Of a stretch of DNA of 64,000 nt, positions 11,963-63,746 are shown piece by piece; the first letter of the stretch is position 1, and each line of letters begins with the position of its first letter. The stretch comes from Auanema rhodensis. Its lineage: Eukaryota > Animalia > Nematoda. The notes under the pieces were generated by a model. It was not told the origin of the DNA and made no database searches. It saw only the letters and a list, made by a program, of their open reading frames with translations. Position numbers and translations under genes: made by a program. The stretch lies in assembly GCA_964057225.1 (NCBI GenBank), contig OZ059897.1, positions 14,818,001 to 14,882,000 of the forward strand, in the 5' to 3' direction.

Positions 11963-14900
11963 TTATGCATCTTCCATTTCAAGTCCAGCAAGGCGTGATT
12001 TAATATTACGAAGGGTAGCTGGATCAACGGAACGTCTTGCTTTATTCATCTTTTTAACTTCTTGGGGAGGAGAACGTACGCTGGTTAAAGCAGTTGGTAC
12101 AACAATAGAACTGAAATAAAAACTTTATCCGTGAAAATTTAAAATAAATACCTTGTTAGAGCTTCCTCATTCAAATCCCTAGCTTTCAAAACAGGATTTG
12201 TGCTCCAATTAACACCAAACATATTTTCAATTTTCAAAGTGAATTCATACAAATCTTTACCACATTCAACAAGCGACTAAAATGATTTGAATAGAAAGGA
12301 ACAACTATAAAACCATGACTTACAGGAGAGAGTGGAGCATTGTTTGCATTTGAATTATTTTGTTCATCTTCAACCATTTTTTTAATTGCTTTCCGTAAAT
12401 GATTCTTAAATAAAATTTTGATTGCGTTTGAGATTAACCAAATGCATACCCTATCAGTATAATCGTTGAACGCACCACGTTCTTCAGGATGATCACGCAG
12501 GTAATTTTGAAGACTTAAAAGATGACGATCAAACTAAAGCACACATATTAAAAAATATTATTGTATTTTTGAAACTACCGATCCCATATCACGAACACAA
12601 TTGTCAACAAGTACATATACTTCTTTTCTAAGTGGAGCATTTTCACTTCGACTACTACGAGGCTGAGGAAGATCAGGAGCAACCTATATTAAAATTAAAC
12701 GCAGATCTATAAATAATATTTACTATGCCCGGAAGAAGTGGCACCCAGTTGTCGTTTTCTGTCTTCAATTGTCTCAAACAGCAGTTGATATAACTGACTA
12801 GCTGAGTATGCGGATTCGGCATTCTACGAACACCGTCCAATACCTATTATCGAAATTACTAGTTCTTTCAAAAACAAAACTACACTTACGGTATCTCCCA
12901 TAGTCATTACGGCTTTTTGAAGGCACATATCCATGCAACGAAGACCTTCTTCAACATAGAAAAGTCTTGGCTGCTACAACAATTAAATATATTTAAAACT
13001 TGAGGGGAAAAGTAATACATCAAAAATTTTGACATAAAAGTCATTAGCGTAGTTCAAAAAAACGCCAAGTCTCAATGGTTTTGGAGTCTTAGTCATATTG
13101 TCTTGCCATTTGTAAACACACTATAATTGGATTAGATAAATTGCCGAGCATAGTTATACAATTAACCTTGCTGAATAGTTCAACAGCTTCTCCATTTGGA
13201 TCAGCAAGGAGAGCACTAGTTAAGCATTTCGCACAAGCAGCAAAAAAAACAGTTGTCTCAATTCTACCACAAACACGGAGAATAGTAACATTAATAGATT
13301 TACGAATAGATATTCCCTGAAACCAAGTCTATAAAATAATAGAAGAACATTCACATACCTCGTCGTATTCTATACTTTCAGATTTGGTCGTACTTAAAAG
13401 ATTTATAGCAGCATAAAGCCATTCGGACATTGCATCTTCATTCAAAAATGAGAGTTTAAGATTGTTGGAATGAAGCTTAAAATAATTATAAACTAAAACA
13501 ATACTTGAAAACGCTTACATGGTGGAAGAAATTGAAGACAAGTTTTAATAAATCTCTTCCTTGACTTGAATGAACAGTATAAACATTAGCAATATAATTA
13601 ATTTGTGTAGCAAAGTATTTAACAACGAAAGAAATTCTATCTTCCACCAATTCTTTTTGCTCATCAACAGAGAGCATGTAGTATACCTAAACATCCCAAT
13701 GAATTAAAATTAATCTTTGATTTTTACCTGTTCAATTGCTTCTTTAGCGATTTCATATCGATCCGATGCAATATTTTGAATAACACGTTCAAACTGATCC
13801 AGAGTATCAATTGAAGAAATGCTTGAAGATGATCCACTTCTTCTGGAAAAAAGAAAAAATATTGTAAGAGTTTTGTTCTATTATTGAATATTCTCTAAAA
13901 CAAATAGTCTTACTTAAGTGCCGTAGTCGTAACTCTCGGTCTTAAACTGGCCGCATTTGGAGCATCTATTCTATCCAAGGCATCTAACTGTTTAGTACTT
14001 TCCAGGGTATGGACGCCCATCTCAACAAACTAAAATTCATGCTAAGGATGAAAATTAGAGAGAATTCAGTAACCTCATCGTCAATTTCATAACGAGATTT
14101 AGCACGTGGCATATGTGTCAATGTGCGTTCATTGAAGTTTCTGTCCGCTAAAGAAAAAAAAATATAATGTTAACAAAGTCTAAATACTATGCAAATAAAA
14201 AGTAACATACTTGGTTCAGGACTTTGGTTACGAGATTGGGACCGATCAACACTGACAGGACGTTGAACTGGAGGGCCACGTTCTGAGAAGAAAGGATTAA
14301 GTACTCAAAAAAGTAACAAAAAGAACCTCCTGGAACAACAATTCTTGCATTAGGTGTTTTGGCTTTAGGAGTTGGAGCCGACCCAGGTGTTACACCCATT
14401 CTTTTAATTCTCTCTTCAACTAAAGCGCGATCTTTATCGGCAATTTTTCCAACATTTCTCCACATCTATTACCAATATATTTAATAATGTTAAACACCAA
14501 AAACAAACCTGGTCTCCCTCTTCGCGGTAGCAAGCAACTAAGCCATTTATAGCAGCATTTCGTACATTATTGTCCCTATCACTAACCTGAGCAGCAATCA
14601 ACTTATGAATTCCCTGAAGTGTCATACAATGTTATAAAGTACTTGTATATTAGCCTCTTACTAAGCTCTTTAATGGTGAAACACCTCCTCTAATAAGATA
14701 TGTTTCAAGATATTGCAAGCATTCAGTACGTTGACGAGCGTTTTTTGATTTTAAAGCTTCTGCAAAAGGAAATATTAACTTGAAAGAAAAACTGTAAAAT
14801 TTACCTAGTACGTGTGGGGTCATTTTATATGCAGATGTCACTTCAGTCAATTCTTCTACAATGTCCTTCACAACTGTACGAACATTTTCCTTGGGTTCTC

Positions 14901-17900
14901 CAGATTTTAACAACAAGTATGGAAGGAATCCCGATAGCTAAACATTAATGTTTAAAAGATTCAACTATATATATATAGGTATACCTCTTCTGGACTCATT
15001 TGTTCATCAGCAGCTCTAACGCATTCAGCAATGTGCTTAGCAAGATCCAAAACCTAAGAGCAGTTGAATAGTACAAAACGTGCATAAGAATTCTAACTTT
15101 AATCAATACAGCTGGGTTAGTTTCAAAAAATCTAAGAGTACACCATTTCAAAAGAAGATCACTGTTAGCTACAAGAGCCTCTGGAGTTGTTTGACCAATC
15201 TTAACAACAACAAATATTAAGCACTATAAAATAATATTACCGTTGTAAGCATTTCACAAGCTTTTATGTGCTGTTTGAAATCTTTGTGAAACAGAAGACC
15301 GTGAAGAGCAGGTTTTGAGACTCCTCCTAGCAAGTCTTGTAACTGGGCAACATGTTCAGAGGTGGGAGTAGCAAAATTCCATTTAATCAACTAAAAAAAA
15401 ATAAATATAAAGTAAATTTTAAATTTCTAACCTTCAGTGACTTTTCATTCTTGATTCGAACAGCCTTCTCAGCGTTCACGATTAGCATAGACGTAGGGCT
15501 AGAAGACTCCGCTGGAACTTCTTCCTAAAGCAAGCCGATGAAAAATGTATGACAGAAAGTGTAAATTACAACTGGTTTAGTTTCTTCTTTTTTAGGTTTA
15601 ACAACTTTTTTAGGAGCATCTCCACCACCAACCTTAAGATTCTGAAATGCACGAGCTTTCTTTCATAAACAAATCGAGTAAAGGAATAGCCCAGGATCTT
15701 CACGAAATATCAAACCTCATCTTCGACAGTTCCAGAATTTTGACGAGAAAGAGGTTTCTTCGCTGGTGGTGCGGCTTTGGCAGCGGTTGCAGCAGCTGGT
15801 TCCTACACAACGAAGGTACAACACAACAATAAACAAGGTGGGGGACAACACAGTTTACACACAAACACAAACACGATGTGAATAGATAATGAAATAAACT
15901 TACATCAGCTTTGTGCACAGACTGAACCATGGCTTGCACAACTTCTGGTCCAACTTCTTCGGCTGCCTTTTGACAAAATTCTTTTATCTAAGTTCAAAAT
16001 TTAATAAACAAAGCTTGACGTTTTGTACCTTAGCCATCTTCAACTTGTCCTCGGCTATATCAGAAAGTAAAGCAAGAGCTGGCTTCTCACCAATTGCGCG
16101 CATAGCAGATCCTAGGGCCGCATACGAAGCATCACGAACTTCAGGATCGGAATCTCCTGTATGCTAAACACTACATTTGTTTTTGATTTATATCACATTC
16201 TAACCTTTATCAAAAGAGTAGAAAATGCTTTCAAAGTCTTTTTAGGCATTGTAGATGCATTTAATTTCTTAAAAGCTCTGAATATAAAAATGGTTAAAGA
16301 ATAACAGAAAATTATCAAAACCTGTATAAAAACAAATCTGTTTGTATCTTAATGTTAGGATTCTTATTTTCCATAGCTGCCATGACATCTTCTTGCATAG
16401 ATTCCAATGTAACCTAATTAACTTGGTCATTCACCTCTAACTTCAGAACTTACAGTAGAAGAAACCGAATCGATGCATTCGATTAAAGGATCCCTGAGCA
16501 TAGGCTTCTTCTCCTTGAATTTTTCAAAAATTTTCGGAATAACAATTGGAGCATGAGGAGCAAACTAAATTAATTAATTAATTATAAACAAAAGAATAAT
16601 TGACAATTACCTTCTTCCTCAAACCGTCAGCTAAGCCTTTCACACACTTTCCTGCTAGCGAGCAAACATTAATATTAGCATCCTTTTCCAAAATCTCAAA
16701 TAAACCATATTATTTTAAAAACGTAAACATTATAGAACTTTTTTCAATAATTCAATCATAGGGCCATAACTAGCTTTAGGATCGAGCTTTGGGTCCTTCA
16801 ACATTAGATCCAAGAAAGACTATAACAAGAAAATATTACAAATTATTTTAAGTTCTCATTATTACTTGCAAAGCAGCTGCACGTTCTGACCATTTTTTAC
16901 TTTCGATGTTATCATTGAAATCGCTGGGAAGTTTCGCAAGAACATCAACAGCAGTTAAAAATTCAAATGGATCAGCTTCCTTAAAAGTAAATAATAAACA
17001 AGTATTCTAATTTAATCTACCTCTACAGCAGCAGGGGCAGCCACTGCACCTGGTGCTGATGAGCCTGCGCTAGAAGAAGCACCAGATTTGCTAACTTCCG
17101 GAGCAGCAGCAACTGGAGCTTTGCTGGCCATATATTCATTGTGCTCTTGTTTAGCTTTTTCACTACTCTCAACTATCTAAAGAAGAACATCAAAAAATGG
17201 ATGTCTATGAATAACTAACTTTTTTCATTTTCTCATCCGAAGCAGCATCACCCAATAAGGTTCGAACGCCTTTTTCTCCAATAAGTCTATACACAGCACC
17301 TAAAGCTTGTGTTGAAGCTTCGCGGACATCAGCATCAGCATCTGCCATATTTTTCCCCAATAAAGGTACTATGGCCTTCATGAAAGGTTTAGGTGCCTGG
17401 AACCAAGAATGGAATATATTCAGAAAGTATAAGGTAACAAACTTTTTCATTTGTTAATGTGTTCAGCGATCTATATACAAATAATGACACTTGTTGCTTA
17501 ATTTGTGGATTAGGCTTTACAATATAAGTTGAGATATCTTCTGTAAGTCCTTCGATGCTAGGTATCTGAAAAAATAAGTGGAAACTTTGATCTGATGTGA
17601 CTACATACAGTTGCGAACATAGCATCGATGCAATCAACCAAAGGTTCCTTCAGTAAAGGTTTTTTTTCCTTGAGCTTTTCGAAGGCTATTGGGAAAATCT
17701 ATGTAATTTATTAGTAGAACACAAAACTTTGCACACAAACCGGTTGAGCATATGAAGAGAATTTTTGCCTAAGACCTTTAGCTAATCCACTAATACATTT
17801 TGCACAAACAGCACAAACATTGATATTTGCATCTTTTGCTAACATCTGAAAATTAGCTAAGTGCTTTCTTCTAAAAGTAATGTAACTTACAGTTTTCAAA

Positions 17901-18082
17901 TTACCAGATATATCTGAGTAATTTGCCTTTGTGGATAAACGTGGATTAGCATCTATTAACCCCGCTAATTGTTCTAACACTTCTTTTCTTTCTAACCATT
18001 TTTTCGATTCCCGCATTTCTTCAAAATTTGCTGGAAGCTTAGCAAGCACGTCGACTTCATCAAGGAAGTCCCAATCACTCAT
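11963..18082 (-). CDS. zyg-9: XMAP215/ch-TOG microtubule polymerase
   Basis: Starts MSDWDFLDEVDVLAKLP..ESKKWLERKE. Repeated TOG/HEAT units (ESKKWSERAAAL, KDANINV, LRFFETNPAVLIKV, SKNARQRTECL, VSDRDNNVRNAAIN). Confidence 0.93.
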
Positions 18083-59521: not shown

Positions 59522-60957
59522 TTTCAGATGTATTTCTGCAACAAATAGGTTTTTGTGTTTCTAAAAAGTTAGAAGTTTGATATTGAAGATAGATTAAATG
59601 AAATCTTGAACACAACGTGTTTCAGATTTTTGGACAACTGATGAAATACGGTGAATTGATTTAATCAAATATATATATATGCATAAAGATAAATGTGATT
59701 ATTTATATGATTCTTCATTAAATAATTAAATTTAATGCTTTCCATTATATTAATTATTTCATCTTTAATCAAAAAAGTAAAATATAATTAATTTATTCTA
59801 AAAGAATATTTTTATACCGTAAATCTGTTATTACTAATGACTAATAATTAAAATATATTTAAATGAATAAAATGTTTAGTTAATTGAAAAACAATTAAGT
59901 AATTCTCTAATATGGTTATGAATAGAACAAAATGTGCAAAAATTAAAAAAAGAAATATGAAATAATATAATATTAGTTTTATTATAAATGTACATACATA
60001 TATATACAAAGTATATTTGATTTATAAATAAGTTATAAGTTATAGAATTTTAAAAAATTTAAACATTCTATATCATTTACTAACTATAACTGTTAATATT
60101 TATGTTTTGCTTCTTTTTTTTTTAAATATTGTAATTATATTTAAGTATTTTGGTAATATACAAATATCATCATAGTATTTTAAATATTATATTTTCCGTG
60201 GAACTTGTTTACAATTCCACGTAAAGTAAATCGTATTTGTTACATTTCTTTGGATCTACACACTAAACGGTTGAATGTGGTCTTTCCACCTCACAATGTT
60301 CTTTTTATCTTTTTCTATTTATACGTATACATACATAGGATGTGTGTACATATTATCTATCTATACCTCTCTCTCTCTCTATCTCTTCATAAACTATTAA
60401 AACATTTTCCTATACATCTTTTACCTTGTCTATGTTATCAGGAAGTGGTATTATCAAAGTGGTTTCAAAATATATGTACTTTAGATCATTTTAGACAGTA
60501 TTAGTTGTTCTGAAATTCAGTGATGCATTCATTAGAATATATTTTAATTAAATTAATAAATTAATGTAAAACTGTAAAACAAGAACGAAATATATAATAC
60601 ATAATAAATATAAAATTGGGGATTAAGATTTAAAGATCATACAAAATAAAAGGAAATGAATATCTGAAGTATTATTAAAATTTTTAGCTCAAAAAATAAG
60701 TTCAAAAAGTTCCCATGAAATGGTTCTTTTTTGTTTGTTTTCAGTAAAAATAAATGAGCAAAAACTAAAAAGTTTATGTTTTTAGCAAAGGTAAATGATA
60801 AAACTAAATAAAAAAACTATGCTAATCATGCAGTTGAATTTTACTTTCTCATAGGACCTATTAGAGTTATATCTATAAACCATTCTGTTGTTTTCAACTA
60901 TTATGGTTAAAGATTTATATAAGTTTTGAAATGCGATTTCTGATCTCTTTCTGCATC

Positions 60958-62568
60958 AGTAGTATAGGAATGAAGGATAATAATACCGTTTTTGACATTT
61001 CAGTCATTTTAACACATTTTTGTTCTCTGATGACAGAGAATCACCTCATTTACAACGCTTTTTTGAAAAAAGTGTGAAATCACAACATTTTTGAAGCTAA
61101 AAAGTGCTTATTTTCAGTAATTTTTATACATTTTCAACCAATTTTCTGTTGAGATGTCGATTTCATTTTTAATTTTCTATTTTCATGTTTAAATGCGCAA
61201 AAAATGTATCATTTTAACACTTTTCAGAAAATTGATGGATGTCTAAGGATGATTTGGTGGTGTATATATAGACGATATACAAAATCCGGCTTCTGCGTCT
61301 CTGCTCAAGCATCACTCTCATCCCCGCTCTAGCTCAACGCTTTTGCTTGCGCCTAATTTTTTCTTTCCTCTCAATGTTGCTTTCAAAATTTTTGACTTTT
61401 AGATCGGGAGCTGTGGACGGTTAAGCTATCGTCTACTATGGATAATCATAACCAGGTATACGCTGTCTTACTTACTTTTATCCGCCTATTTAATTAAATT
61501 TCAGAACGGATCATCTTCAAGCGGAGCTGATAGCTCATTCGGTGTGTTGGCCATGCCTTATGATGAGTTCGACATCAGGCTCAAGGATATCAACGGAGCA
61601 GAATTGGAAAAGGTGCGGTCTTTTTTTTTCAAAGCCTTCAAAAAAGTTATTATAGATCGGTGATGCGGAAGGTGTGAAGCACTTGAGCCCAGGGACATTC
61701 TCTGACCCAGCGTTTCCTGTGCAAGGAATCTTACATGGGCCGAACTCCAGGCTCATGGTGCCTTTGTCTTTCTAACGGTTCCGGAAACCGGAATCCCCAA
61801 TCGTCAATGTATGGTGCCTGATTGACACCGGTAGTCCGTTCACGTGTTTGACTGTGAAGACCATAGAGGCTTCTGTCGGTGTTGGAAACGTCGTCGACGG
61901 GAACTACTATCCTTGTTAGGTTTGTTTGCTGTACTTTTTATTTGAAAATAATATTGTATGAAATTCAGGACCAGCCGACTCGAATCGAATGTCAAGTCAG
62001 CAAAGTTGGCCCGATTTTGAGCATGTCAATATTCTGGGAATTGATTCGTTGCGTATTTTGAATGTTACTTGACTATGAATTGGAGTGCGAACTCCTTCTC
62101 GCTTATCCAAGTGTAGGCACTCTGTTTCGATAAATCGTTTTCATTATGAGTCTCTCTTTATCGCTTGTTTCCATCGTTTCTTGGATATCCAGATTTGTTA
62201 GTGGTGGTAGATCTTTTGTGAATTTCATTTATTTTTTATCTTCAGAGATAATACCACTTTCTTTCTAAAATCGACATCCTTAGACATCCATGAATTTTCT
62301 GAAAAGTGTTAAAATGATACATTTTTTGCGCATTTAAACATGAAAATAGAAAATTAAAAATGAAATCGACATCTCAACAGAAAATTGGTTGAAAATGTAT
62401 AAAAATTACTGAAAATAAGCACTTTTTAGCTTCAAAAATGTTGTGATTTCACACTTTTTTCAAAAAAGCGTTGTAAATGAGGTGATTCTCTGTCATCAGA
62501 GAACAAAAATGTGTTAAAATGACTGAAATGTCAAAAACGGTATTATTATCCTTCATTCCTATACTACT
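60958..62568. mobile_element. Non-autonomous Maverick/Polinton-type element (1611 bp) with cargo gene
   Basis: TIRs 60958-61251 and 62275-62568 (294 bp, one mismatch seen). Termini are AGTAGTATAGG...CCTATACTACT. A 6-bp direct repeat TGCATC flanks it at 60952-60957 and 62569-62574. Confidence 0.88.
61438..62116 (+). pseudogene. Spliced retropepsin-like (clan AA) aspartic protease pseudogene inside the element
   Basis: MDNHNQ/NGSS..YDEFDIRLKDI..EK/IGDAEG..FPVQGILHGPNSRLMVPLSF*RFRKPESPIVNVWCLIDTGSPFTCL..; later HVNILGID (the hydrophobic-Gly motif of retropepsins). In-frame TAA at 61773-61775, a TAG before the third intron, and apparent frameshifts in the last exon. Confidence 0.75.
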
Positions 62569-62934
62569 TGCATCACACAATATAAAGTACTATATTAACA
62601 GAGATCAAACTATTAGAAATTTTATTCTAAACTATCTCCAAATTGCAAAGTGAAATCAAATTAGTTTCTTTATGAAATCGTTAATTCAGAAAAGATGAAA
62701 TTTTGCTCAATATGATATCGTAAACCTCGAAGTATTATCTGGAATGTTCGTTTTCTTTGCTGATTGCTTGGTTTTTGGCCGATGCTGCGGTTTCTTCTAC
62801 TCCTAATGAACATGGATAAAGAATCGTCCACCAGGATGTAACGCCAACACACCACATGGTCCTTATCAGTTGCTGGGGCAATATTTAAGGATGGAGACTT
62901 TGAGGAGAAGCCAGTGTATCACTCTACTCACAGA

Positions 62935-63746
62935 ATGTACAAGCTCGCTATCTTCGCTGCTCTCCTCGGTAAGTGAAAACCCCAATGCAGATACGATCTT
63001 AGAAAAAATCTACTGCAACTTGCTTAGATCCAGCAATTTTTACTAGAAAATATAGAATTGGCTCTTGAAACTGAACATTATGATTTTCAGCTGTCACCAG
63101 CGCCATCGTCATCAGCACTGATGTCACCATGCCATCCAGCACTTGCACCCATTGCATCTGCCTCCAGGAATCTGGATGCAAGCCAATTGGATGTGAAATG
63201 GACGTCGGATCCCTCTCCTGCGGATACTACCAAATCAAGCTCCCATACTACGAGGACTGCGGACAAGTAGGAAGAAGAAACGGAGAAGACATCCAAGCCG
63301 CCTGGAAGAGATGTGCCAACGACCTCAACTGCGCCACCACCTGTGTCCAGGTAACCATTAATTTTGGCTTATTTTTTTCATTAGCATGTGAAATACGAAG
63401 GTGTCTTGGGTTGAACAAAACCTTTTCCCACAATTTTCCTTCCGATTTCCCATGAATGTATCTGACTGTTTGGCAAACTTTTCAAAAGCACTAATTTCAT
63501 TTTAAATTGACCAATGCCAAAGATCTCACACCGAACAATTCAAAACAATTTCTATTATGTTTCATGAATATAATTATATTTCTTCAGAACTACTACAAGC
63601 GTTATGCTTCTCAATGCAACGGAATGGGACAAAGCGCCTGCCAAGTTATGGCCCGTAACCACAACGGAGGACCAAGAGGATGCCACAACGGAGGAACCGT
63701 CGGATACTGGAACCACGTCAGCTCTTGCTGCAAGGGACAATGCTAA
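62935..63746 (+). CDS. ilys: Invertebrate-type lysozyme (destabilase family)
   Basis: Signal peptide; CTHCICLQESGCKPIGCEMDVGSLSCGYYQIKLPYYEDC..WKRCANDLNCATTCV..ARNHNGGPRGC. Three exons. Confidence 0.95.

Follow-up and report, generated by a model that had tools for sequence, protein, structure and literature searches.

Among the vehicles for gene transfer between nematodes, Mavericks (Polintons) have the best support. Their commonest ends in vertebrates read 5'-(AGT)2//(ACT)2-3' and are bordered by a perfect 6-bp target-site duplication (TSD), with terminal inverted repeats (TIRs) of 46-1,447 bp, according to the accessible text of PMC8097293. A survey of nematode Polintons, available in part (PMC10748475), also tested 6-base TSDs, gives a TIR range of ~100-1,500 bp and lists an intact Polinton for Auanema rhodensis in a supplementary table (Plnt_Arho_1, CANBAI010000003.1:3,834,220-3,850,977); the text AGTAGT or TSD is absent from the accessible portion of that supplement. 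Nematode Mavericks carry GC-rich, intron-containing cargo adjoining the left TIR, and two cargo families are named in the literature compared here, the WASP/WOSP proteases and the KRMA kinases. For the WASP proteases, an identity at the ~97% level served as evidence of transfer (accessible text of bioRxiv 10.1101/2022.07.12.499685).

In A. rhodensis, an insertion of 1,611 bp was located at positions 60958-62568 of the window, by which we mean the whole 64-kb stretch of DNA that was analysed. Its features are the following:

60952..60957, no strand: left TSD, TGCATC, read from the sequence
60958..61251, + strand: left TIR of 294 bp, starting AGTAGT, a member of a multi-copy, diverged family
61252..61437, + strand: region leading up to the cargo gene, in which a TTTTAG resembling a splice acceptor ends at 61402 (putative role)
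61438..61455, + strand: cargo exon 1, 6 codons, presumed start, placed by the N-terminal match to C. auriculariae P0080 and C. bovis P0038
61505..61612, + strand: cargo exon 2, 36 codons, placed by homologue mapping
61656..61919, + strand: cargo exon 3, with the catalytic DTG at 61824-61832 and in-frame stops at 61773-61775 and 61917-61919
61969..62116, + strand: cargo exon 4, with an ILGID motif, a stop at its end and frame changes near 62010 and 62068
62117..62274, + strand: cargo 3' region up to the right TIR, read from the sequence
62275..62568, − strand: right TIR of 294 bp, with its ACTACT end on the + strand, read from the sequence
62569..62574, no strand: right TSD, TGCATC, read from the sequence

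The two TIRs are identical at 293 of 294 positions, the single mismatch lying at TIR position 277. Of the 13 inverted-repeat pairs of ≥40 nt in the window, theirs is the only one that is both long and near-perfect. When flank lengths of 2 to 11 were tested, a duplication was found at 6 only. The chance of a 6-bp flank match is ~1.1e-3 at the flank composition, and that of an AGTAGT end is ~3.4e-4 at the TIR composition. It should be mentioned that TGCATC is common in the window (24 observed against 26 expected), so that the duplication is informative only because it borders the TIRs. In none of the six frames does the element stay open for more than 86 codons, which leaves no integrase, PolB or capsid ORF. 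The 294-bp TIRs, the perfect 6-bp TSD and the lack of these ORFs, all claimed in a preliminary description of this DNA, are thereby confirmed.

On both sides, contigs of run X7 continue from the flank into the TIR with no differences, and the insertion is therefore part of the genome. The same continuity rules out a contaminant or misassembled insert. A pair of separate TIR-only elements flanking a host gene was rejected as well, because a single TSD is common to the outer flanks; in addition, the inner TIR ends carry no terminal motifs. An i-type lysozyme (Destabilase, E 7e-16; window 62935-63455, + strand) begins 361 bp downstream of the element, which thus sits in the likely upstream region of the lysozyme gene.

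The AGTAGT...ACTACT ends, the 6-bp TSD and the 294-bp TIRs match the Maverick signature, with the motif as published for vertebrate elements, and the earlier assignment of the termini to the Maverick type stands to that extent. The cargo also adjoins the left TIR, as in nematode Maverick cargo. The Maverick core set (pPolB, integrase, ATPase, protease and capsids, in 13-25 kb) is absent from this 1,611-bp unit, and because these genes define the group, the element is likely a Maverick derivative and not an autonomous member. The unit could also be a non-autonomous cut-and-paste DNA transposon, similar to a Pack-MULE, that captured a protease gene and whose Maverick-like ends are coincidental. 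Such transposons are typically small and have long, near-perfect TIRs, and the protease msft-1 was captured by a MULE in C. briggsae. A joint of 61193 to 62233 in runs X7 and X8, weak with a shorter side of 27 nt, suggests a shorter derivative of ~0.6 kb of the TIR family, as could be expected of a cut-and-paste element. However, the TSD is exactly 6 bp, whereas hAT elements give 8 bp, and the exact Maverick end motif would occur by chance at ~3e-4, so we consider a cut-and-paste origin unlikely. Mutator elements give TSDs of ~9-11 bp and Merlin elements 8-9 bp; the duplication length is thus at odds with all three families named as alternatives in the preliminary description (8-11 bp). Some DDE families have 6-bp TSDs (IS3EU), with different end motifs. 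In viral contigs, a 15-mer of the TIR end occurred at 60 loci, the best with a BLAST E value of 0.34, which are chance matches, and no tblastn match to the family was found. In metagenome contigs, a 19-mer of the TIR end occurred at one locus (L061), where it lies within an ORF of bacterial type and the similarity does not extend further.

The four exons of the cargo align in order with homologous proteins and are separated by three GT..AG introns of 49, 43 and 49 nt. The intron-containing gene and the CLIDTGSP catalytic motif reported earlier are both present, and the gene is broken at four places, by two in-frame stops and two frame changes. The copy in the window is a pseudogene. Contigs of X7 and X9, two runs from different studies, read the same as the window at the exon-3 stops, and those of X7, X8 and X9 reproduce exon 4 with no gap or difference; the covering contigs (61548-62257 for X7 record 12, 61204-62257 for X9 record 23) have no gaps. 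An assembly error behind the breaks is ruled out by this agreement between two studies.

In base composition, the cargo has a GC3 of 57%, compared with 29% for the host ZYG-9/XMAP215 gene (window 11978-18082, − strand), used as the comparison gene, and 17-31% across three host genes. A neighbouring lysozyme exon reaches 63%, and for this reason the composition is only suggestive of a foreign origin; the cargo, said earlier to be GC-richer than the host, is so with respect to ZYG-9 and two other host genes but not with respect to the lysozyme exon. It is noted that the ORFs of P0027 and P0028 enter a stretch whose translation is the same, for 13 codons, as that of the third intron of the window gene. 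The source of these two sequences may be the same species or another.

To place the protein family, an AlphaFold model (pLDDT 87) was made of an intact relative from C. remanei, P0003. The best match of this model is Rickettsia APRc (PDB 5C9B), with a Z score of 9.8, an rmsd of 2.9, 107 aligned residues and a Foldseek E value of 2e-4, followed by Ddi1 domains and retroviral proteases. The fold match spans residues ~60-181, with Z scores of 8-9.8. The cargo family is therefore predicted to be a retropepsin-type (clan AA) protease, as proposed in the preliminary description; proteolysis and dimer formation would follow from the modeled fold. Pfam returned no match for the exon-3 read-through and weak Asp_protease_2 matches in 3 of 38 relatives, and none of the members of the 38-row alignment matched a Pfam protease family at E <0.01. 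A PDB sequence search with the family profile and a search of Rfam both gave 0 matches. The ESM Atlas neighbourhood consists of unnamed nematode and Mucoromycota clusters, with the retropepsin families more distant.

The family is large and broad: 38 homologues were matched in one search, there are 994 clusters at 50% identity, and its members reach fungi and other eukaryotes. D[T/S] stands at the catalytic place in just 59 of the 91 members with a matchable motif (of 189), so many family members may be pseudo-proteases. None of 402 candidates in metagenome contigs and neither of 2 candidates in viral contigs was confirmed as a member of the family.

The relationships of the cargo, compared with X placed at the breaks, were then set against those of the host. 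ZYG-9 is 65% identical to its counterpart in Auanema sp. JU1783 (1,373 aa) and 51% to that of Caenorhabditis sp. 36 (863 aa), in non-overlapping matches. For one exon of this gene the best match is again Auanema sp. JU1783 (77%), with three Caenorhabditis at 52, 39 and 37%. The cargo, in contrast, is 82% identical to C. auriculariae P0080 over 158 columns, 72% to a C. bovis and 67% to a C. remanei sequence, and 45-46% to two Auanema JU1783 homologues. With the host side represented by one gene, the ranking is thus reversed, Caenorhabditis being nearer for the cargo and Auanema nearer for ZYG-9. In the trees, the cargo groups with Caenorhabditis, the only genus among the named members of its starred clade (99/96 in the tree of 39 rows, 98 in that of 27 rows). 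In its N-terminal stretch, which is of low complexity and low pLDDT, the cargo is nearly identical to C. auriculariae and C. bovis, with 88% identity to P0038 along 42 aa. Two other members of the family, P0025 from C. auriculariae and P0235 from Pristionchus pacificus, match at 203 of 209 residues (97%), a pair that contamination of one assembly could also produce.

These observations bear on whether the gene arrived with the element or was picked up in the host. If a Maverick-derived shell had captured a vertically inherited host gene, the likeness to Caenorhabditis would reflect ancient paralogy and loss, and hidden paralogy can mimic transfer in a family that is old, large and rich in paralogues. 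A clade of the cargo with its Auanema homologues was not rejected by the AU test (p=0.106), for which the 27-row tree was made by dropping 13 unnamed or outgroup rows and P0035 and adding P0080 (first 163 aa) and P0081. The breadth of the family, out to fungi and other eukaryotes, is also compatible with a host gene. So is the presence in runs X7-X9 of another, diverged gene copy, corresponding to window 61367-62111, with ~82-91% DNA identity and a longer intron 2; the 182 letters upstream of it have no match to the TIR side. Capture of a host gene is nevertheless improbable in our view, given that the cargo ranks opposite to ZYG-9 in identity, that the low-complexity N-terminal stretch is near-identical across genera, that its GC3 exceeds that of three host genes, and that the family contains the 97% cross-genus pair. 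The cargo family likely moves horizontally between nematode genera, judging from the sequences compared. The horizontal transfer put forward earlier as a possibility finds strong signs at the level of the family (the cross-genus pair and the Caenorhabditis clade), but for this gene the phylogeny of the repaired protein, though set against the ZYG-9 pattern by the Caenorhabditis clade, leaves the Auanema clade unrejected.

The TIR draws many diverged contigs in four runs. Its summed depth in X7 is 4-16x that of the flank, a figure that is not a copy number, and most of the aligned contigs are <95% identical, which indicates that the TIR is a member of a multi-copy, diverged family. Parts of the region 61252..61437 are also common to other loci, with loose ends of run contigs at 61283, 61292 and 61325. 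The exact inner part, on the other hand, looks single-copy in X7, the run with the clearest depth: its inner contigs have depths of 80.3 and 77.7, equal to the flank depth of 75.6-75.9, as for one near-identical copy. In X9 the inner contig has a depth of 24.5 against a flank of 14.5, which is ambiguous. In the 4 runs examined, no joint corresponding to an empty site was listed, and among 20 runs none was recorded as an RNA source of the sequence.

The ages of the TIRs and of the gene differ markedly. The one TIR mismatch permits at most ~5 coding-region substitutions from the time when both TIRs were still identical, whereas four breaks have accumulated in the cargo and its end branch measures 0.22, compared with 0.03-0.07 for its nearest sisters. 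Most of the decay would therefore have preceded the last integration or a homogenisation of the TIRs. This timing fits trans mobilisation of a coreless element; it also fits gene conversion in place, or a larger element that inserted recently with its cargo already dead and then underwent deletion. An active family of trans-mobilised miniature vectors delivering working protease genes between species could account for TIRs matching at 293 of 294 positions and a perfect TSD around a decayed gene, which suggest mobilisation after decay, and for the higher inner depth in X9. We regard such a family as very unlikely, considering that the runs of two studies agree on the four breaks, that the X7 inner contigs are at flank depth and that TIRs 1 kb apart would also stay identical through gene conversion. 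The trans-mobilised miniature vector system put forward in the preliminary description is accordingly kept as a hypothesis: no working protease is deliverable by this copy, its X7 depth is that of a single copy, and a deletion derivative explains the same anatomy.

On balance, we think it probable, with reservations, that the insertion is an internally deleted Maverick that keeps its two TIRs and a broken, predicted-retropepsin cargo of a family that likely moves horizontally. We propose that a Maverick with an intron-containing gene beside its left TIR reached an Auanema-like lineage from a pool in common with Caenorhabditis, and that its core genes were then lost by deletion. A deletion from the end of the cargo to the right TIR would give exactly the anatomy seen in the window. 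The element would have been placed by a Maverick integrase, which makes 6-bp duplications, either at full length before the deletion or as a small unit with helper proteins acting in trans. The cargo, being dispensable for mobility, would have decayed. As the TIRs look far younger than the damage to the cargo, the last integration, or homogenisation of the TIRs by panhandle repair or gene conversion, would have come after most of this decay.

Several members of the family are fused behind housekeeping N-terminal parts (P0090, P0092, P0094, P0103 and P0232), although these are predicted gene models that may contain errors. The partners are NDUFS3 (E 7e-6), EF-Tu with mitochondrial best matches (E 1e-8), HSP70, aldehyde dehydrogenase and HSP90. 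A crude presequence rule was passed by 10 of 60 extended members, compared with 101 of 2,549 internal 30-mers (4%). P0025 of C. auriculariae and P0235 of P. pacificus both lack the catalytic Asp and both start with a presequence-like stretch. The window copy has no such housekeeping leader.

Non-autonomous Polinton entries are held in repeat databases, and small size alone is probably not new. No literature was found on aspartic-protease Maverick cargo or on miniature Mavericks that carry cargo, in the main text of bioRxiv 10.1101/2022.07.12.499685, where the terms 'aspart', 'retropepsin', 'non-autonomous' and 'miniature' have 0 occurrences, or in the accessible portions of PMC10748475, PMC11414722, PMC8097293, PMC3014272, PMC8969392, PMC10680173, PMC12945077, PMC11296320 and PMC5499653; further cargo families may be given in the supplements or journal version of that preprint (Widen). 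If an element of the form TIR-cargo-TIR carries a predicted retropepsin-fold gene, it would add a third Maverick cargo family, and would put the length of the ends that such an element keeps at no more than 294 bp. It also makes a question testable from public genomes, namely whether Mavericks without a core are mobilised in trans or arise by deletion in place only. The family is of interest for being unnamed, for its 97%-identical cross-genus pair and for its repeated N-terminal fusions, while the importance of the window copy itself is limited because it is dead. A more far-reaching and rather doubtful possibility is that these unnamed, predicted retropepsin-type proteases are a third Maverick cargo family, shuttled partly by trans-mobilised miniature elements, whose arrivals repeatedly fuse to housekeeping first exons and gain mitochondrial targeting peptides (NDUFS3, EF-Tu, HSP70). 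If so, the fused cargo genes would supply material from which new selfish or organelle-targeted proteases could arise.

Compared with Mavericks/Polintons in general, the window element is alike in its (AGT)2//(ACT)2 ends, its 6-bp TSD and a TIR length within the range given in the accessible text of PMC8097293 and PMC10748475. It differs in being 1.6 kb long instead of 13-25 kb and in having no pPolB, integrase, ATPase, protease or capsid genes. It resembles the Polinton remnants of C. elegans in that Polinton TIRs are dispersed without a core in a nematode genome; as described in the available part of PMC11414722, the C. elegans TIRs are remnants that drive rearrangement at eri-6/7, and not TIR-cargo-TIR units with a TSD. 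Relative to APRc and the RVP domain of Ddi1, the cargo family is alike in its predicted fold, a single D-T-G per chain and a C-terminal hydrophobic-Gly motif, but with 11-15% identity only, and it adds an N-terminal helical part of ~40 residues.

A close parallel is with the nematode Mavericks that carry WASP/WOSP and KRMA genes, as far as the accessible text on them goes. The window cargo has a predicted aspartic retropepsin fold, whereas WASP/WOSP are HtrA serine proteases and KRMA are kinases. The window copy is without the ubiquitin-like N-domain of WASP/KRMA cargo and has no room for one, and no ubiquitin-like Pfam match was found in the 38 + 52 family members scanned. In both systems, an intron-containing, GC-rich cargo lies by the TIR, the distribution among nematodes is patchy, and some members from distant genera are nearly identical. 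The nearest relatives, too, are repeatedly those of C. auriculariae and C. bovis.
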